From NCBI GenBank assembly GCA_963708025.1, contig CAVPSB010000010.1, forward strand, positions 32,001 through 96,000: a stretch of 64,000 bases of DNA, given 5' to 3'. Both the position numbers and the translations under genes were made by a program. Under the pieces are notes generated by a model. The model did no database searches and was not told the origin of the DNA. It saw only the letters and a program-made list of their open reading frames with translations. Positions within the stretch are counted from its first letter, which is position 1. Each line of letters begins with the position of its first letter. Below are positions 13,830 through 26,158 of this stretch, in pieces. The stretch is from an uncultured Candidatus Rokubacteria bacterium. GTDB lineage: Bacteria > Methylomirabilota > Methylomirabilia > Rokubacteriales > DASRDR01.

Positions 13830-14273
13830 CTAGCGCTCCAGGGGATAGCCGCGGCTGGCCCAGCCGGGGAAGCCGTCCTCCAGGCCCTGGATCTCCTCCA
13901 TGCCGAGGCCGGCCAGGTAGCGATAGGCCGCTTCCAGCTCGTCCTTGGGGCAGGCGCAGTAGAGGATGATGCGGCCGGGGGGCAGATACCCCGCGCGCCG
14001 GCGGAGCTCGCGGATCGGGATCGAGCGGGCACCCGGCAAGCGCCCCTGGCGGAAGTCGTCGGCGGGGCGGAGATCGATCAGCATTGGCCGGGCGCCGCGG
14101 TCGAGGAGCGCCTTGAGATCCGGCGCCGAGATGACCGGCATGGGCCCCGCCGGGGACCCGTGGCCGGCCGCCGCCGGCCCGGCCAGGGCGGCCACCAGGG
14201 AAGCCAGCATCCAGCAGATCCGAAGCCGGCCGGCGCGGGGCCGCGGGCAACGCTCGGAGATCGAAGCGGCCAT
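13830..14273 (-). CDS. Exported rhodanese-like protein (CAC motif)
   Basis: IDLRP..FRQGRLPGARSIP...ILYCACP...LEDGFPGW, with a hydrophobic leader. Start uncertain (14273 or 14210). Confidence 0.85.
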   Translation of the reverse strand: MAASISERCPRPRAGRLRICWMLASLVAALAGPAAAGHGSPAGPMPVISAPDLKALLDRGARPMLIDLRPADDFRQGRLPGARSIPIRELRRRAGYLPPGRIILYCACPKDELEAAYRYLAGLGMEEIQGLEDGFPGWASRGYPLER

Positions 14274-14374
14274 CTCCTCGAAGGATAGCAGGAGCCGCGC
14301 GGAGGTGTCAGCCAGTCGGCTTCTCGCGACCGGCTGGCTCTGGCCACGCGGCCGGCCCCCCACCCCGGAGATCT

Positions 14375-14520
14375 TCAGCGCGGGTCGAAGCGGAGCAGGC
14401 GGCTGCTGTTCACGATCACGACGACGGTGCCGACGTTGCCCCACCGGAGCACGGCGCCGGTGAGCGCCAGCACGCCGGCCGCGCTGCCGGGGAAGACGGT
14501 CCGCCACGCCCGGGCGGGGC
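14375..14520 (-). pseudogene. C-terminal remnant of a heavy-metal P1B-type ATPase
   Basis: Reads ..GVLALTGAVLRWGNVGTVVVIVNSSRLLRFDPR*, resembling the last TM helix of P1B ATPases. The rest of the gene is absent. Confidence 0.5.
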
Positions 14521-15911: not shown

Positions 15912-16403
15912 TTACACGAGATCCTTGCCGGTCGTCGCCATGGTGAGCCGGCCGTGCTTCACCCCGCGCGTCGCGATGAGGCGATCGGCGAGGTCGTGGA
16001 TCGTCTGGGCCCGGCCCCGGACGACCAGCACTTCCAGGCAGTGGTCATGGTCCAGGTGCACGTGGAGCGACGAGACGATCTCACTGTAGTGGTCGTGCTG
16101 GGCGGCCGTGAGCCGGCCGGGCAGAAGCCGGGCGTGGTGATCGTAGACGAGCGTGATCGTGGCGACCGTCTCGGCGTTCCCGGCCTTCCATTCGGCCTCC
16201 ACGAGCCCCTGACGCACGAGGTCGCGAATCGCCTCCGAGCGGTTCGGGTAGGCCCGGCGTGTCACCCACGCGTCCAGGCGGCCGAGGAGTCGCCGGTCCA
16301 TCGCGACGCCGAACCGACGGAGCCCGGCCCCCCCATCGTCGCGCGGCGGCGAGCGCCTCCTGGCGGGTCCGGGCCCGGCGTCGGGCGAGCGCCGGCTCTT
16401 CAC
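15912..16403 (-). CDS. nikR: Nickel-responsive regulator NikR
   Basis: RHH domain RFGVAMD..NRSEAIRDL. Metal-binding domain YDHH...HVHLDHDHCLE. Confidence 0.93.
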   Translation of the reverse strand: MKSRRSPDAGPGPARRRSPPRDDGGAGLRRFGVAMDRRLLGRLDAWVTRRAYPNRSEAIRDLVRQGLVEAEWKAGNAETVATITLVYDHHARLLPGRLTAAQHDHYSEIVSSLHVHLDHDHCLEVLVVRGRAQTIHDLADRLIATRGVKHGRLTMATTGKDLV

Positions 16404-16434: not shown

Positions 16435-16899
16435 TCATGGCCGGGCGGCCTCACGGCCCAGGAAGGCGGCGTAGTCGCGCTCGTGGTTCGGCACGTAGCC
16501 CGACACCGCCCCCTCCGTGGGATGGCCCTGCTCGATCCAGCCGGGGATTCCCTCGTCCAGGATCCGGAGGTTCCGGTACCCCTTCGCGTAGAGCGCCTCG
16601 TAGGCCAGACTGGCCAACCGGTGGGGGCACGCTCAGTAGAGGACGACCGGGACGTTGCGCGGCAGGATCACGTCGCGCTCCCTGATCGTGGAGAGCGGGA
16701 ACGACTCCGCCCCCTTGATGTGCCGCGCCCGGTACTCCTCGCGCGTTCGCACGTCGACGAGCACGACCGGCGCTCCCCGGGCCTGGAGGCGGATCACCTC
16801 GGCTACCTTGATGAAGGTGCGGGTGTCCGACTGGCCCTGCGCCGTTCCGGCCGCGAGCCCCAGCGTGGCGACCAGGAGCGGGATCAGCCTCGTGCGCAT
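16435..16899 (-). CDS. Exported rhodanese-like probable selenoprotein (in-frame UGA at codon 89, U-A-C)
   Basis: Two track ORFs are in one frame across the TGA at 16633-16635: VVLY-U-ACPHRLA. This aligns with IILY-C-ACP of the paralogue. GAGGAGG RBS; SECIS-like hairpin follows the UGA. Confidence 0.8.
16591..16635 (-). promoter_or_regulatory. Candidate bacterial SECIS element
   Basis: UGA GCGUGCCCCCACCGGUU GGCCA-GUC-UGGCC UACGAGGCGCUC. The apical loop starts with G, 22 nt after the UGA. Confidence 0.65.
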
Positions 16900-17027
16900 C
16901 GAGTTCCTCCTCGTTTCAGTTGGTAACCTCCCGCCCCCCCCCAGCCCCCCTCCCCCACCCGTTGGACGGCCTTCGGCCTGTGGCGGGGGGAGGGGGGAGC
17001 CGGAGGACCCCATTCCTTCACACGCTC

Positions 17028-17984
17028 TCAGTGGCGGTGGCTGGTGGGCGCACCGCCCCACTCGAAGGACGCCTGCCGGGACCGGGCGAATCGCCCCGCC
17101 ACCGCCGGCATGAGGCGCATCGTGGGCGTCCCGATGGTGACCGTGACCCGCTCCGTGCCGTCGGGCAGGGTCACGTCCGCCCCGTAGTGAAAGCCCTGGT
17201 GGCCCAGCATCGGGACGAGCCGCGTCCGCTTCGGGGCCTGCTTCCCGGCGTGGATGGTGGCGGCGACCGGCAGGTAGGGGATGGGCTCGCCCGACTGGAC
17301 ATCGGCGATGAACACCATGAGGTGTCCTGGCCGCCGGGCCCCGGCGCTCTGGCCGGCGGCCCTGGGTGCGTTCGGGTGGCCGGTCGCGTCGTCGTACTCC
17401 ACCCGCACCCGGACGTCGCCGAGGACCTGCTCGCGAACCGGCGGCCCCGCGTGGTCGTGCCCCTGGCCGTCTCCCGCGCCGAGGCTCTTGAGGAACGCCA
17501 CCAGGTCGATCAGCTCGCTGACCGTCAGGCTCTCCCGGTAGTCGGGCATGATCGAGAGCCCGTCGGGCCCGGCATACCCGGGGCCTTCGAGGATGACGGC
17601 GTTGGGGTTGAGGATCGACTCCGCGAAGTATTCGGCGGGGTGATGGCCGCCCATCGCGGTCAGCTCGGGGCCCACCTCGTCCGACGGCGTCGGCGCCTCC
17701 GGGAAGCCCGCCCCCTTGACGGGGTGGCACTTGTAGCACTCGAGGTTCGCGAACACGTCACGCCCCGCCTTCGCGTCGCCCGGGGGGAACGCGAAGCGCC
17801 AGCCCGGCGGCACTCCGCCGTGGCGGTGCAGCACATCCATCCCGATCCGGGCGGGAGCCGTGGGGTGCTCGTGAGGCGGGATCCCCGGCGGGTGAGCGTG
17901 GCCCTCCGGCTGCGCGGCGGACCACCGCAGGGTGGCCACCACTACCAGCGCCAGTCCCGTGGCGGTGAGGTGCCGTGCCGTCAT
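17028..17984 (-). CDS. Exported cytochrome c fused to a P19/Tp34-like metal-binding domain
   Basis: CYKCH heme motif, ESILNPNA and MPDY. The C-terminal HL.VFIAD...IPYLPV...LVPM...FHYGADV resembles P19/FetP. His-rich linkers. Confidence 0.75.
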   Translation of the reverse strand: MTARHLTATGLALVVVATLRWSAAQPEGHAHPPGIPPHEHPTAPARIGMDVLHRHGGVPPGWRFAFPPGDAKAGRDVFANLECYKCHPVKGAGFPEAPTPSDEVGPELTAMGGHHPAEYFAESILNPNAVILEGPGYAGPDGLSIMPDYRESLTVSELIDLVAFLKSLGAGDGQGHDHAGPPVREQVLGDVRVRVEYDDATGHPNAPRAAGQSAGARRPGHLMVFIADVQSGEPIPYLPVAATIHAGKQAPKRTRLVPMLGHQGFHYGADVTLPDGTERVTVTIGTPTMRLMPAVAGRFARSRQASFEWGGAPTSHRH

Positions 17985-18625
17985 GACGCCGTCCTCCCTG
18001 CCCGATCGGTCGTGAGTCGCGCGTTCCGCGATCGGGTGCGCCACAACAGCCACGCGGCCGCCGAGCCCAGGAGCGCCGCGCCGGCCCCCACCATCGCCGC
18101 GCCCACGCCCCAGGACGCCGCCGCCTCCACCTCCAGCGGGAAGTCGGCGCTCCCGGAGCCCTCCGGGCCCGAGACGTGGACGGTCACCGTCCAGCGCCCC
18201 GGACTCGGCAGCCTGAGATCGGCCACGTGGCTGATCCCGCCGGGATCCCGGCCCCGATCCGCCGTGACCGAGACCGGGGCGTCCGCGGCGCCGGCTCGCC
18301 CGGCGCTGACGCGCACGACCGCGTCGGGGACCGGGCGAAAGTTGCCCGGCCGCATCACGGTGACCGTGAGCTGACACGCGTCGGTCCGCGGCCGCTTGGG
18401 CTGGGTCCACGCCATGAGGACGTAGGGCCCGGCCCGGTCGTTGAGCTGGAGGACCCCGCTGTGGTCTGCCGAGGCCGGGCCGGAAGCGCCCACCAGGGCC
18501 CCGGCTGCCAGCGCGACCAGCAGGACGCCGCGTGCCAGCGCCGGGAAAGAAGTGCGGGCGCCTCCCCTTCCCATCGCGCGGCCTCCGCGGGTCGGGGGGG
18601 CTCGCGCCAGCGGGCCCGCCTTCAT
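17981..18625 (-). CDS. Exported YtkA/FixH-like Ig-fold protein with C-terminal TM anchor
   Basis: Signal peptide, GPYVL.AW..P, LPSPGRWTVTVHVSGPEG, C-terminal hydrophobic helix. Confidence 0.6.
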   Translation of the reverse strand: MKAGPLARAPPTRGGRAMGRGGARTSFPALARGVLLVALAAGALVGASGPASADHSGVLQLNDRAGPYVLMAWTQPKRPRTDACQLTVTVMRPGNFRPVPDAVVRVSAGRAGAADAPVSVTADRGRDPGGISHVADLRLPSPGRWTVTVHVSGPEGSGSADFPLEVEAAASWGVGAAMVGAGAALLGSAAAWLLWRTRSRNARLTTDRAGRTAS

Positions 18626-19014
18626 GACGCCGGTCGGAGCCGGAAGCCGAAGTCGCTCTCGACGACGTGGCCGTCAACGGAGAGGACGCGGAACTTGACC
18701 GTGTAAGCGCCGGGCGCCAGCGGCCGCAAGCCGACGGAGAGCCGCTTGGGATCGTCCGGCCCCACCGCGGCGTTCCCGGCGTCAACCCGCGCGCCGCCGG
18801 CGTCCCACACCGAGATGGTGGCGAACTGCGGCTCCAGCCGCTCGCTGAACCAGAGCTGGACCCGGTCGGGGGCCTTGACGAGCACCGCCCGCCGGGCGGG
18901 GATCGACTTGACGAGCATCGCGTGGGTCCAGCCCGAGACCGGAACGAGCGCCAGCGCCAGCCAGACCAGGAACCTCACCGCGACGACGAGGCGGGCAGGG
19001 AACATCCTGCTCAT
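18622..19014 (-). CDS. copC: CopC-family copper-binding protein
   Basis: Mature N-terminus HAMLVKSIP, then L.FSE.LE and VLSVDGH. Confidence 0.9.
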   Translation of the reverse strand: MSRMFPARLVVAVRFLVWLALALVPVSGWTHAMLVKSIPARRAVLVKAPDRVQLWFSERLEPQFATISVWDAGGARVDAGNAAVGPDDPKRLSVGLRPLAPGAYTVKFRVLSVDGHVVESDFGFRLRPAS

Positions 19015-20047: not shown

Positions 20048-20623
20048 CTACCGCCGAGCGGGCGGAAACTCCGCCTCGCTTCGTGACTCGGGGCAGCCGA
20101 AGCTCCCGACCAGGCCCTTCCGGGTGACGGCGCCGGCGAGCTTCACCGGGCTGCGGTCCTCGGCGCCCGCGACGTGCCCGGCCGGGTTGCAGCTGAAGGT
20201 CAGGTCGACCGGCACGGTGTTGACCGTGCCGTGGATGCGGAAGCTGTAGGTGGTGGCGACCGTCGGGAAGAAGAACGCCTCGTAGTGCCCCGGGGATCGG
20301 AAGGCCGGATAGAAGTCGAAGGTCCGGGCGGCCGGGCCGGCCTTGACCTCGACCTTCAGGCTCTTCTCGAGCCCCTCCACCGGCTTGATGTTCGGCGCCC
20401 GCGAGTCCATGGGGTTGGCCGGGTCGGGGACCCAGACGAAGAGGTCCACGCCGCTCTTGTCCCCGGTGAAGACCGGCTCGTTCAGGAATCCGACCACGAA
20501 GAGGTAGTCGGCCGTCCCGATCTGGAAGAGCTGGCGCTGGTGAGCGCCGGCGATCGGCGAGACGCAGAGCGACAGCACGGCGGTGAGGGTGACGAGAGCC
20601 AGCAGTCGGCGGAGAGACATCAT
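20048..20623 (-). CDS. Exported hypothetical protein with N-terminal His (YcnI/CopC-cluster associated)
   Basis: Signal peptide AGA|HQRQ, then VVGFLNEP and PGHYEAFFFPT. Confidence 0.7.
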   Translation of the reverse strand: MMSLRRLLALVTLTAVLSLCVSPIAGAHQRQLFQIGTADYLFVVGFLNEPVFTGDKSGVDLFVWVPDPANPMDSRAPNIKPVEGLEKSLKVEVKAGPAARTFDFYPAFRSPGHYEAFFFPTVATTYSFRIHGTVNTVPVDLTFSCNPAGHVAGAEDRSPVKLAGAVTRKGLVGSFGCPESRSEAEFPPARR

Positions 20624-22504
20624 GAGACCTCCTGTCCGGCGTTCCGGCCGGAGCCCGGGTCGAGGGGTTCGAGGACGACCGGCGCGCCGGACAGGGCGCG
20701 CCGGCTGCGGCGGAGCAGGCCCGCGGTGAGCGTGACGATGGCCACCGCGGCGATCGCCATCGGCAGGTCCAGCGGCGCCGGTGGGCCGGCCGCCAGGCTG
20801 CGGTGGTGCCCGGCCGGGACGGCGCCCGCCAGGCGAAGCGTGAAGCGGTCGTTGAGGTCATAGGCCCCGTCCCGCTGGACGACCACGCGGCCGCTCCAGG
20901 TGCCCTCCATGCCGAGGAGCGCCTCCATGGTGACGAACGAGCCGGCCGAGGCGCGGCTCAGGGTCAGGACGAGGGGGCCGCCGTGGGCGTGCGGCGGCGT
21001 GAGCTGGACCAGCGCGGCGGTGGCGTCGGCGAGCGGCCGCCCCGCGCGGTCGGTCACGGCGACCCGGATGGTGTTGCGGCCGGGACTCAGGGAGGCGACC
21101 TCCACGGAGACGCGCGCATCGTCGACCTCCCGCTCGTGACGGAAGGCGGCGACCGGCGCCGGGCCGTGGGACGGCGAGGTGGTTCCCAGGAGGGCCGCCA
21201 GCAGCAACGCCAGGACGCCCAGCCCCGCTTCCAGCCGGAGCGTCCGGCGGAACCGTCGGGCGACCCGCTCGCCGCGCGCGCTCGCGCGGCCGGCGGCCTC
21301 GACGGCGCGGGGGTGCACCCGGAACTGGTGGTAGCCACCCAGGCCCAGCATGGCGGCCATGACCAGGAGCTTCGCGAGGAGCCAGCGACCGTATGCCGTC
21401 CCGATCAGGTCACCGGCCGACGCCAGGTGGAGCCGGGCGAGATAGAGACCGCTCAGGCCGAGACTGCCGACGGCGACGGTGGCCAGGACGGAAAAGGCGG
21501 GGATCGCCTGCACCAGCGCCGCCGCCGGGGCCACAGGGCGGAAGGAGCGCCAGAACAGCGAGGCGAAGTAGGCGAGGCCGGCAACCCACAGCGCCACCCC
21601 GAGCCGGTGGAGGAGCTCGGCGCCCAGGGCCAGGCCGCGCCAGCTCGTGGCCGCCGCGCCGTGACTGAGGAGTCCACCCGCCAGGATGGCGAGCAGGACG
21701 CACCCGATGCCGACATACCGGGGCCAGCGCCGGTGCCGGGCGCCGCGGGCCTGGAAGGCGACCACCGCGGCCAGCAGGGCGGCCAAGAGGAGCTCGAGCG
21801 TGGCCAGCCGGCCCACCGCGGTGGGCAGGAGGGCGATCGCGCCGGCGAGCCAGCCGGAACCGGCGCCAACCTGACCGGCCCGGGCGCCGAACGCCGCCGC
21901 CTCGCCGGCCGCCATCGCGCCGATCGATGCCGACAGGAGCCCGGATGGGGCTTCCGCCGCCGCCGGACCGAAGACCAGGGGGCCGATGAGCGCGCCGAGC
22001 AGGGCGAGCGCCCCGAGCATGGCGACCCAGCGCCCGATGGCGACGAGGGGCGGGGTGGCCGCGGCCAGATCCCGGCCCGGTGGCGGGGCGGGAGCCACCG
22101 TGCCGACGGCGAAGCCGTGCGCTCCCTCGGTCACGTGCCCGTCGTCGGCGGACAGGACCCGCCAGGCGACGGTGTAGGGGCCGGGCTCGAGCTCCGGGAC
22201 GGCCAGGCGGTAGAGCCACGGATCAGCCGGGTCGACGCGCGGAGGACCGGTGTCGACCGGCCGCCCGCGCGTGTTGAACGACCTGCAGCGAGCTGGCGCG
22301 CGGCTCCACGCGCTCGCTGAAGCGGATGGTGATCTCCCGTGGACTCTCGCCGACGACGGCGTTGGCCTCCGGCACCATGGCGACCGGCACGGCGTGAGCA
22401 AAGGCCAGGCGGGGCGCGGCCAGGAGGAGCGCCACCGCCAGGGCTGACGTGCTCGCGCGCACGCCGGACGTGAACCGGCGACCACGAGCCACTCTGCCGC
22501 GCAC
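20620..22504 (-). CDS. CopC-CopD-YtkA fusion copper uptake protein (YcnJ/CutJ-like; frameshift near 22283)
   Basis: AFA|HAVP..FSERVE in the first frame. VLSADDGH, SHGAA, LHRL...W, YGRWLLAK and a YtkA-like C-terminus in the second frame. AAGGAGG RBS before the GTG at 22504. Confidence 0.85.
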
Positions 22505-23595: not shown

Positions 23596-23975
23596 GGTGA
23601 CCTGTCCTTCCTGATGGCCGTGACGAGGAGGCGACCGTCCTGCGCCTTCAGCGTGAACCGGACGGGATCGCCGGGGGAGAGCCCTTCCAGGAGCTTCTCG
23701 CTGGCGGCGTGGAACGGCATGGTCATGCCCTCCATCAGGTCGGGGATGTCCTCGTGGGTGAGCCAGACGACGCCGGAATCGCGCTGGACGAGGCGGACGA
23801 TGCCGCGAGCCGTCCAGGCGCCGTCAGCGACGCGCGGCTGGGCGGCCTCTCGCACCGTCGCGAGCTCCTGGCGGAGCTGGCGGACCTCGCGGGCCCACCA
23901 GAGATAGCCGCCGCCCAGCCCGAGCACCAGCGCGACATCGACCAGGAGCACCACCTTCCAGAGGCGCATCGTCAT
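23592..23975 (-). CDS. CusF-like copper-binding protein with N-terminal anchor
   Basis: LTHEDIPDLMEGMTMPF...PGDPVRF. Confidence 0.88.
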   Translation of the reverse strand: MTMRLWKVVLLVDVALVLGLGGGYLWWAREVRQLRQELATVREAAQPRVADGAWTARGIVRLVQRDSGVVWLTHEDIPDLMEGMTMPFHAASEKLLEGLSPGDPVRFTLKAQDGRLLVTAIRKDRSP

Positions 23976-24123
23976 TCGGGCCGGGGGGGAGCTCCGCGCT
24001 CCATCCGGATCGCCGCGGCGCCTCGGGCCTGCAGCCCTCGGGACCCCACGTCCTTCCGGTGGCCCGGACCCCCCCTCCGGGTCTTTCGTCGCTGACGCTT
24101 CCGCGGCAATGGCTTCGAGCGTC

Positions 24124-26158
24124 TCAGTGGACGTGCTCGGCGGGGGCGGGGACCCGCTCCGGCTCGCTGGCGAGCCGCTGGACCTGGGCCACGAGGCGCG
24201 CGGGATCGCTCCAGCCGTCGCCCTGGGCCGGGCTCCAGCGAGCCCGGACGTAGCCCTGGCGGTCGATCAGGAACTCCAGGTGATCCGGGGGCGCCTCTTC
24301 CGGCTCGGGACGCAGGCGCCGATAGGCCTCGGCGGCCTCGGCGGCGCCGTCCACCGCGATCGGGAAGGCAACCAGTCGATCGTCGAGCTCGCGATAGACG
24401 TTGCGCCCGGGCCGGACCGGGACGCCGAGGACCTCCGCGCCGGCGCGGAGGATCGGGCCGTAGGCCGTGTTGAGCTGGGACAGACGGGGTCCCGACCCGG
24501 GGAGCGTGAAGATCACGAGGACGACCATCCGCCGGCCGCGGTAGTCCTTCAGGTTGCGGGCCTCCCCGACTCCCCGCGTGAAGGTGAAGTCGGGACCGAC
24601 GAGCCAGGGAATGGGCGCGGTCTCCGGGCCCATCGGGCGGGCCTGCTCGGCGGCGGCGAGGATGCGGATGAGGTTGATCGCGTCCCATCGCTGATCGACG
24701 CTCAGCCGATCGGCAAATCCCCGCATGGCGGAGCCCGGGATCCCGTTCGTGAGCCACCAGAACATGTCGCCGGCGGTGTGATCGGCGGCGTGCCGGGCGG
24801 TGAGGTCGGCCGGGCGCGGGCGGAGCCCGGATGCGGCCGGGCCGTCGCCGTAGCCGTGCTCGCCGTGACACACCGCGCACTGGGCCCGGTAGACATCGCC
24901 GCCGTCGGCGATCGACCCGGCGGTGTAGGTCACGCTCGGGCGCAAGTACGTCGTGGGGTAGGCGTTCGACGGCGAGCGGCGGCAGCGCCACCATGACCCC
25001 CGCCGCGGCCACCGCCGCCCCGGCGCCGAGAACCACGGGCCACCGGCGCAACCTCAAGACGGCGGCGAGCAGCGCGGCGACGAGCCCGAGCAGCGCCACC
25101 TGGCTGCCGATCGCCACCCGGGTCTGGACTCCGGGCAGGCTGCGGGTGGCGTCCCAGGACAGCCGATAGGCGAATGGCCAGGTGATCTGATCGTGCCGGG
25201 CGGGCGTCGTCAGCCCGAGCACGGCCACGACCCCGAGGATCGCCACGCCCAGCCCCAGCTCGGCGACGACCTGGCGACGGAGCCGACCGACCACGCGAGC
25301 GGCCCGCCGACCGCCCGCGACGGCCGCCAGGAGCCGGGGCTTCAGGACGAGGTGATTGAGCGCCGCGATCGCGATCAGTGGCAGCAGCAACCCGACCTTG
25401 AGGAGCAGCCACCGGCCGTAGGCGGTGCCGACCAGGGCCGGGAGTGAGTTGACGTGCTCCCAGCTGTTGAAGAGCCCGGTGGCGACGAGCGCGAGGACGC
25501 TGGCCAGGCCGAGGCGCGAGAAGCGCCGGGTGGCGCCCGCCGCCAGGACCGTCCCCGTCGGCTCCGGCAGGCCCCGGGACCGGTGGAGCAGGACGGCCAG
25601 CGGGCCCAGCGCCCCGAGCCACACGCCGGTGGCCAGGAGGTGCACGGCGTCGACCGCGATCGCGGCACCGGGAAGCTCCTGGGCCGACGCGGCGTGGCCG
25701 GCGGCCCCGATGATCGCCAGACTGAGCGCGCTCAGCCCGCCGGCCTGGAGGCGAAGGGCGAGCCAGTCCCGCACGTCGCGCTGCTCGTCGGCCAGGAAGA
25801 GCAGCCCGCCGGCGAGGACGAGCAGGGCCTGGCGGGCCAGCCACACGGCGCCGTACTGCGTCGTCAGCAGGACCGCCCCCAGGGCCGCCGTCGTGAGGCT
25901 CGCCCTCAGGCCCGCCCCGGTGGCCACCGCGGTCTGGCGCCAGAGATCGAGCAGCGAGCAGGCGATCGTGACCGCCAGAGTCCACCGACCGAGGGCGAGG
26001 AGGCGGCGGTCCAGCCGTTCGAGCAGCGCGATCGCGTCGGCGCCGGCGGCCTTCGCCGCCGGCCGGGCCACGAGCACGAGGAACGCGAACACGCCGACGA
26101 GAAGGCTGGCGCCGAGGAACTGGGCCCAGCGAACGGCGACGGCGAACGCTTCCATCAT
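24124..26158 (-). CDS. CopD - cytochrome c - redoxin-like fusion protein (frameshift near 24965)
   Basis: CopD motifs GHAAS, VHLLATGVWLG and YGRWLLLK. After an extra A: YPTTY..CAVCHG..DLTA.H, then PDFTF...LKDYRG...FLIDRQGYVRARW. Confidence 0.85.

Follow-up and report, generated by a model that had tools for sequence, protein, structure and literature searches.

Five selenoprotein forms of the rhodanese domain appear in the table of a 2026 review, with the active-site motifs UxxS, UxxG, CxU, UxxG and UxxxxU, where U is selenocysteine (Sec); in that table the motif UxC is given only for non-rhodanese families (PMC13188914). Here we describe a gene on the minus strand of a 64,000-nucleotide stretch (the window, in which positions are counted below) of an uncultured Candidatus Rokubacteria bacterium (GenBank assembly GCA_963708025.1, contig CAVPSB010000010.1, positions 32,001 to 96,000). 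Its predicted product is a small rhodanese with the loop U-A-C-P-H-R, and by the motifs of the review's table this U-x-C-P-H is a sixth active-site arrangement beside the five reviewed forms. From comparative sequence evidence we conclude with high confidence that the gene encodes a genuine selenoprotein, and an exported, single-domain selenoprotein of rhodanese fold is, with only slightly less assurance, the best explanation of the locus as a whole. In the parts of four papers that were searched (PMC13188914, PMC9312934, PMC1088965, PMC12013277; supplements, which may list the family, excepted) there was no U-x-C rhodanese and no link between a Sec-rhodanese and copper. A Methylomirabilota metagenome-assembled genome (MAG) with 63 predicted selenoproteins, cited in PMC13188914, may include this family.

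Each of the described systems resembles the window protein in part. The best NCBIfam model, NF041203 (rhodanese_LYCAU, form 3), matched at 44.1 bits (37.4 bits in the genome search), below its cut-off of 115. It too is a small single domain with a loop L-Y-[C/U]-A-[C/U]-P and with Sec and Cys two residues apart, but its motif, taken from the family name and the table of PMC13188914, is C-A-U, with Cys first and Sec third, whereas the order U-A-C is invariant in the window's family. Forms 1, 2 and 4 (UxxS, UxxG, UxxG) and form 5, TsoB, share with it a Sec at the catalytic position of the rhodanese domain; compared by table motifs only, they differ from the loop U-A-C-P, in which C-P-H after Sec is invariant (PMC13188914). 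The model for TsoB, a rhodanese/DsbD fusion-like protein (NF045694, UxxxxU), scored 28.2 bits against a cut-off of 805, and the window protein has one Sec and a single domain. PspE, which is periplasmic, and GlpE, the thiosulfate sulfurtransferases of E. coli, are also single rhodanese domains of similar size, and PspE (2jtq) and YgaP are among the structural neighbours. They differ in having one Cys and no Sec, and the window loop has no conserved basic residue and carries D-E-G where PspE and GlpE have G-G. Their NCBIfam equivalogs scored 30.4 and 17.8 bits, below the cut-off of 102.

An automatic list of open reading frames (ORFs) splits the gene at a TGA, and the initial annotation had proposed that the two in-frame halves form one gene, with Sec in the active-site loop. 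This proposal was upheld. From ATG 16899 to the final stop, TGA 16437–16435, the frame is interrupted solely by TGA 16635–16633 at codon 89, and one Pfam Rhodanese domain (PF00581, residues 33–123, 63 bits against a cut-off of 22.2) spans both halves. The TGA lies in the peptide context VVLY-U-ACPHR, and in profile alignments the U column matches the loop Cys of the solved rhodaneses 6mxv and 3tp9, placing it at the catalytic position, first in the loop.

The TGA is conserved well beyond this genome. In a species-level set with one genome per species (80 loci), the Sec column held TGA in 76, TGC in three and AGA in one; among 33 close loci from related genomes and metagenomes, 30 had TGA and three TGC (L037, L040, L054). 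Cys and UGA are thus paired at this column, as the initial annotation had suggested checking, and a Cys paralogue in the window reads LYCACP. All 11 distant loci that cover the column had TGC, and three further short matches leave it uncovered. One locus of the set (L041) belongs to G038, an unpublished genome that contributes a single row to the comparisons and carries none of the conclusions by itself. Most named members are MAGs of Candidatus Rokubacteria/Methylomirabilota, joined by a few Binatia, Thermodesulfobacteriota, an Acidiferrales MAG, Entotheonellaceae and others. In genome G001 (L046, L057, L108) the match is confined to the 3' part, from about residue 86 on, TGA and hairpin included. 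What lies upstream is unrelated, and a separate Cys-type rhodanese ORF stands ahead of this piece, which may be a remnant truncated at its 5' end.

A search of 5.8 billion proteins gave 154 candidates and, from these, 12 relatives. At the Sec site six of the 12 end exactly at ...VVLY, one reads W, and five read C, two of them close relatives (57% identity) and three distant. The W stands in a public gene call (P0009, VVLYWACPH) and most likely reflects a caller's code in which TGA means Trp. Gene callers cut the protein at residue 88 wherever it is present, so the family is missing or truncated in databases.

Public sequencing runs, all in the form of assembled contigs, agreed at this codon. 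In the four runs that cover the site, no base other than TGA was found at 16633–16635, and in particular neither TGC nor TGT. Two runs from RNA libraries (X17, X18) each cover a short part only, the uncovered parts being uninformative; one RNA-library contig of 167 nt spans 16613–16779 with zero differences.

We compared the hairpin that follows the UGA, a putative selenocysteine insertion sequence (SECIS), across relatives. The element GUC-UGGCC with its loop G 22 nt downstream lies where the initial annotation had placed it (Table 1), although the likeness to the E. coli fdhF SECIS drawn there is, we take it, generic only. Pooling both locus sets gave 106 Sec-form loci (some genomes counted twice) and 82 distinct sequences. 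Their five core pairs were kept in 77, 82, 82, 71 and 81 of the 82, and the first loop base was G in every one, with loops GGG (46), GUG (13), GUC (11) and GUU (12). Compensatory switches were seen at the closing pair (A-U in 22, C-G in 55) and at the next pair (C-G in 79, U-A in two). The spacing was 21–22 nt throughout, the stem 4–9 bp and the start of the loop G[G/U].

Codons within the hairpin were frozen, with GCC for Ala+7 in 24 of 24 sequences, AGT for Ser+8 in 17 of 17, and a final G always at Leu+6 and Leu+9. Mean synonymous entropy was 0.34 for three hairpin codons versus 1.16 for 31 other four- or six-fold codons. Cys forms keep the same or a similar peptide with other codons (CTC-GCG-AGC-CTC-GCC in L037), and the best hairpins in the three Cys forms were −2.3 kcal/mol, none and −3.7 kcal/mol. 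By these comparisons the candidate SECIS is retained only where the codon is UGA and has been lost from Cys forms through synonymous changes.

Selection on the frame after the UGA was estimated from the 26 distinct Sec forms whose flanks are complete (downstream, 319 of 325 pairs could be used); left out were L046 and L057, whose 5' part is unalignable, and loci with a contig end within 52 codons upstream or 42 downstream. The ratio of non-synonymous to synonymous substitution rates (dN/dS) was 0.35 downstream (codons +1 to +41) versus 0.48 upstream. The residues P+3, G+18 and G+36 never vary, yet each is encoded by three to four synonymous codons. In a 14-sequence alignment 13 of 23 invariant residues follow the UGA (in alignment numbering C61, P62, H63, L65, A69, L73, N80, L84, D85, E86, G87, W91 and P97). 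As judged from these substitution patterns, the predicted frame after the UGA is under purifying selection.

The Sec machinery that the initial annotation proposed to look for was present: selA, selB, selD and tRNA-Sec all occur in the genome. On contig C32 selB (372 bits), selA (598 bits) and tRNA-Sec (76 bits) are clustered, all above curated cut-offs, and this tRNA-Sec is the single match above the family cut-off. The gene selD, on contig C7 (L011, G000:C7:91381-92304,+; 398 bits, likewise above its curated cut-off), has one in-frame TGA of its own, at the Sec site HGAG-U-A-C-K, where the nine bases UGAGCGUGC are identical to those of the rhodanese Sec site and a G-rich hairpin follows. The organism therefore decodes this context. 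SelD has in common with the rhodanese the tripeptide U-A-C and the same bases UGAGCGUGC, but it is a cytoplasmic enzyme of unrelated fold, and the similarity is of motif only. GC content of the contigs was 0.707–0.721 versus 0.712 for the genome, and bin contamination was 8.18%; the sel genes and the rhodanese likely belong to one organism.

Two further rhodaneses of the genome are of the C-x-U form, with the loop LYC[S/T]UPNE (L166, G000:C2:375277-375597,+, 75.5 bits; L167, G000:C16:195577-195756,-, 50.3 bits). Both lie under the NF041203 cut-off, and downstream of each is a GC-rich hairpin whose loop is rich in G. The distant metagenome rhodaneses L064 and L066 read ...AY-C-Q-U-PAENES, with Cys at the catalytic column and TGA two codons on, that is, C-x-U.

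Across 41 relatives selB was found in 35 and tRNA-Sec in 35. A Cys form does not mark loss of the Sec trait; that idea was ruled out, as two genomes with the Cys form (G017, G020) retain selB and tRNA-Sec. A second tRNA-Sec-like gene (about 50–52 bits, Rfam cut-off 47) lies away from selA-selB in G005–G010, G012–G014, G018, G019 and G023.

Several observations weigh against a selenoprotein. The hairpin fits the published bacterial SECIS model in loop, stem, G position and spacing (loop 3–9 nt, stem 4–16 bp, G in the first two loop positions, spacing 16–37 nt, minimum free energy ≤ −7.5 kcal/mol; PMC13188914), but its 5-bp core, at −6.2 kcal/mol, is weaker than the model's −7.5. To reach that energy, unconserved flanking pairs must be counted in (the stretch from +4 to +55 folds at −17.4 kcal/mol), and shuffled sequences fold locally just as stably (z = −0.24). 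An amino-acid change, S-L to R-G, accompanies most of the compensatory changes, which may go back to a small number of events among related sequences. The RNA evidence is a single short contig, from a library possibly containing DNA. One Thermodesulfobacteriota MAG (L137, 4001–4249) has AGA (Arg) at the Sec column with the hairpin intact; a near-identical locus (L125) has TGA, and the AGA is a recent mutation or a base-calling error. In six of 41 relatives selB was not found, and in six tRNA-Sec was not found; the rhodanese carriers concerned are G025, G028, G029 and G038 for selB and these four plus G032 for tRNA-Sec. All five carriers have selD with an in-frame TGA (in addition, part of selA is present in G028, and selB of G032 lies at the end of a contig), so the simplest reading of the missing machinery is a binning gap of one cluster. 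As for the hairpin, its significance derives from the comparative data (TGA in 76 of 80 genomes, hairpin in 82 of 82 sequences, frozen codons) and not from the stability of a lone fold.

Were the TGA a true stop, the gene would be a nonsense pseudogene or an 88-residue fragment, and the downstream part a relic or a small ORF from TTG 16617. In favour of a stop, six of the 12 database homologues are annotated as ending at residue 88, the gene is split in the mechanical ORF list, and G001 seems to retain the 3' part only. A true stop is nevertheless extremely improbable given a TGA shared at this column by 76 of 80 species genomes, a downstream dN/dS below the upstream value, a rhodanese domain and fold that need both halves, and a hairpin conserved only alongside TGA. 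Translation of UGA as Trp or Cys, whether through a variant code or a Cys-charged tRNA of Sec-like type, meets a different obstacle: the gene itself terminates at a TGA, which shows that TGA does not serve as a sense codon in general. Tryptophan is what the P0009 record shows, though most simply by the caller's choice of code. Cys-charged look-alikes of tRNA-Sec have been reported, and many relatives have the second tRNA-Sec-like gene, but in the window's own genome a single tRNA-Sec exceeds the family cut-off, beside selA and selB, and known Sec positions are written TGA in SelD and in two other rhodaneses. We regard such decoding as very improbable. Insertion of Sec is thus supported by the column, the hairpin, the machinery and the contig checks together, and the selenoprotein proposed by the initial annotation stands as the favoured reading.

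For the product, an AlphaFold2 model of residues 31–154 is confident (predicted local distance difference test score 85.6) and has a rhodanese fold. Closest to it in the Protein Data Bank (PDB) are Alr3790 and BH2092 (template-modelling score 0.70–0.77), both uncharacterised single-domain rhodaneses, and the structure search and PDB sequence search returned generic uncharacterised rhodaneses alone, with no functional hint. A basic-hydrophobic N-terminal segment is present in all relatives with a complete 5' end. Export, which the initial annotation had proposed, is plausible; on the strength of this shared segment we think it probable.

We propose that SelB with Sec-tRNA would bind the hairpin and that Sec would be inserted at UGA codon 89, giving a 154-residue precursor that the Sec pathway would export, with cleavage after some 22 residues. 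With less certainty, the U-x-C-P-H loop may form a selenol/thiol centre, perhaps including the His, and not an anion-binding thiosulfate site, because no basic residue is conserved in the loop and G-G gives way to an invariant D-E-G. U-x-C-P-H mirrors the C-x-U form, an argument for chemical activity at both positions of the loop. Such a centre may cycle through a selenenylsulfide or bind a soft metal such as Cu(I).

Table 1. Coordinates of the Sec-rhodanese gene, its elements and its neighbours in the window
Feature	Position	Strand	Remarks
Cys paralogue, rhodanese loop LY-C-A-C-P	13830..14507	-	true start probably internal; 2 kb from Sec-rhodanese
NikR-family metalloregulator, downstream	15912..16403	-	31 nt past stop; Pfam NikR_C 109 bits, RHH_1
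Sec-rhodanese, complete coding sequence (predicted)	16435..16899	-	154 residues + stop, U at residue 89; Pfam Rhodanese, AlphaFold2 model
Possible lower-stem extension of hairpin	16596..16621	-	window sequence only; minimum-free-energy fold; outer pairs unconserved in family
Putative SECIS core hairpin GGCCA-GUC-UGGCC	16603..16615	-	5 bp, 3-nt loop, first loop G 22 nt after UGA; comparative
In-frame UGA, first position of active-site loop U-A-C-P-H-R	16633..16635	-	TGA column conservation; public contigs
Signal-peptide-like N-terminus	16834..16899	-	about 22 residues: basic start, hydrophobic core, A-Q-G before Q; from translation
Shine-Dalgarno-like GGAGGA	16905..16910	-	5 nt ahead of ATG
G/C-rich palindromic repeat (REP-like), spacer	16921..17012	-	fold −67.6 kcal/mol; 621 BLAST matches in genome
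Cytochrome c (CxxCH) fused to P19-like 'Fe2+ transport protein' domain, upstream	17028..17984	-	Pfam PF00034, PF10634
CopC	18622..19014	-	Pfam CopC 81.8 bits
CopC-CopD	20620-22485	-	Pfam; CopD hits in window 75.9 and 87.5 bits
CopD	23972-26158	-	Pfam CopD (window hits 75.9 and 87.5 bits)

The rhodanese lies among metal-related genes on the same strand. Upstream, in order, are the cytochrome c/P19-like gene, CopC, a YncE-like propeller, CopC-CopD and CopD; downstream are the NikR-family regulator, an ABC-3 permease and the Cys paralogue. A scan for promoters and terminators found no terminator-like site between the upstream gene and NikR, and its two promoter-like sites are elsewhere (15900–15871 and 14311–14282, minus strand); as evidence this is weak either way. 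The palindromic repeat has very high contig depth, and X2 contigs (≥90% identity) join 16910/16911 to 17026/17028 without it. The co-transcription with copper-uptake genes proposed in the initial annotation would have to run across this repeat. In X1 and X2 contigs (≥90% identity) the segment 16054–16432, which holds the spacer next to the NikR-family gene and the N-terminal half of that gene, is swapped for 17–36 other letters; these contigs may derive from other organisms or from assembly joins. A CopC match with a TGA at about 22193–22396 was considered as a second copper selenoprotein and rejected, being a frameshift inside the CopC-CopD gene with the TGA out of frame. The CopC domain there (about 22190–22400, minus strand) is split over two frames, the N-terminal half with its signal peptide in one and the rest in a 621-residue ORF, through an assembly error, a pseudogene or slippage.

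The initial annotation had tied selenium to copper handling through these neighbours. That tie is partly supported for the window's branch of the family, where the flanks of 15 loci (genus g5 excepted) were scanned with Pfam and a copper or heavy-metal domain gene was counted within about 2.6 kb; in the largest clade, by contrast, the gene lies between TldD and PmbA. Left out of the scan were L057 (the same sequence as L108) and L058, and L052 is without an ORF of 100 residues. Such genes stood beside 12 of the 15 loci, in at least six arrangements and several phyla: SCO1, VKOR and then the rhodanese (L097, L104, L113, L116); the YcnI-like DUF1775 (L100, L106); CopD-cytochrome c with CusF and CopC (L050); CopC (L048, L055); a P19-like gene ending 21 nt ahead of the rhodanese (L047); and an HMA P-type ATPase (L137 and probably also L125, a cut locus). 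The own genome, at 8.2 Mb, has about 5 CopC, 6 CopD, 3 SCO1 and 2 HMA genes, some 16 in all, and on this base rate the association is unlikely to be chance; by rough reasoning, not computation, the rate is below 1–2% per random 5-kb window. The window's own neighbours were shared by none of 80 loci in tblastn comparisons (none of 12 earlier), a null that first made the copper link look unsupported; the Pfam flank scans point to different copper genes instead. In genus g5 (11–12 loci) a Fur-family regulator is next downstream, in the position of NikR, and a DUF2282/MbnB pair, of a kind that makes copper-binding peptides, lies about 2.5 kb off.

In a tree built by a quick method from 96 columns, with modest support, the window protein was sister to L047 (support 96) in a basal grade, and the derived clade comprised 60 rows. 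The largest clade has MoeA, TldD, the rhodanese, PmbA and a transketolase on one strand in 45–50 of 80 loci, with the transketolase split (also in L078 and L082).

Points against a copper role include the null in synteny and the 130-nt spacer (16900–17030), one palindromic repeat copy that separates the rhodanese from the upstream copper genes. The loci and flank size of the Pfam scans were chosen by the analyst and compared with the genome base rate only; the scans found no copper gene in three of the 15 branch loci (L049, L103, L108) and none in the three loci scanned in the largest clade. A selenoprotein with no specific copper tie would be a general periplasmic sulfur/selenium transferase or thiol-selenol oxidoreductase, such as a PspE analogue or a C-x-C disulfide catalyst, with nearby copper genes explained by shared envelope-stress regulation or chance. 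The copper-free arrangement of the biggest clade fits this, as do the variable downstream gene (NikR in the window, Fur-family in g5), the ordinary rhodanese fold, the VKOR (thiol-oxidising by Pfam family) that precedes the rhodanese in four loci, and the U-A-C of the genome's own SelD as a selenium-handling site. It does less well with the copper or heavy-metal genes beside 12 of 15 branch loci, set against about 16 such genes in 8.2 Mb, and with a loop that lacks the sulfurtransferases' conserved basic residues while its Cys, His, Asp and Glu are invariant. We give this alternative somewhat less than an even chance.

A role in copper or metal homeostasis in the window's branch is, from gene neighbourhoods, an evenly balanced prospect. 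It might consist of periplasmic copper handling, for example reduction of Cu(II), holding of Cu(I), or keeping the thiols of copper chaperones reduced, though any single chemistry is at best an unlikely guess. In its boldest form, which we put forward tentatively and think unlikely, the protein would be the first example of a selenium-based periplasmic copper protein, in which the rhodanese loop for anion binding and sulfur transfer has been remodelled to a soft-metal/redox site, and whose Sec-x-Cys-Pro-His site reduces Cu(II) or passes Cu(I) to partners of the CopC/CopD, SCO1, CusF or YcnI type. Sec proteins that handle metals are known: the review lists an SO_0444-family Cu/Zn efflux transporter with UxC, a cation-transporting ATPase with UxxC and a mercuric transport protein (PMC13188914). 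By their description these are precedents for Sec or UxC with soft metals, but they are membrane transporters and not soluble rhodanese-fold proteins.

At least 76 species-level genomes, from bacteria abundant in soil and groundwater, carry the family. Its hairpin, very short, rigidly spaced and synonymously frozen, makes a clean natural model of a minimal bacterial SECIS on which selenoprotein finders could usefully be trained. The copper-gene neighbours give a hypothesis that can be tested at the bench, namely that selenium and copper metabolism meet in the cell envelope. If the copper proposal is true, the reversed C-x-U rhodaneses of the same genome would be a mirror solution for another substrate, and copper trafficking in Rokubacteria and several other soil phyla would depend on selenium supply.

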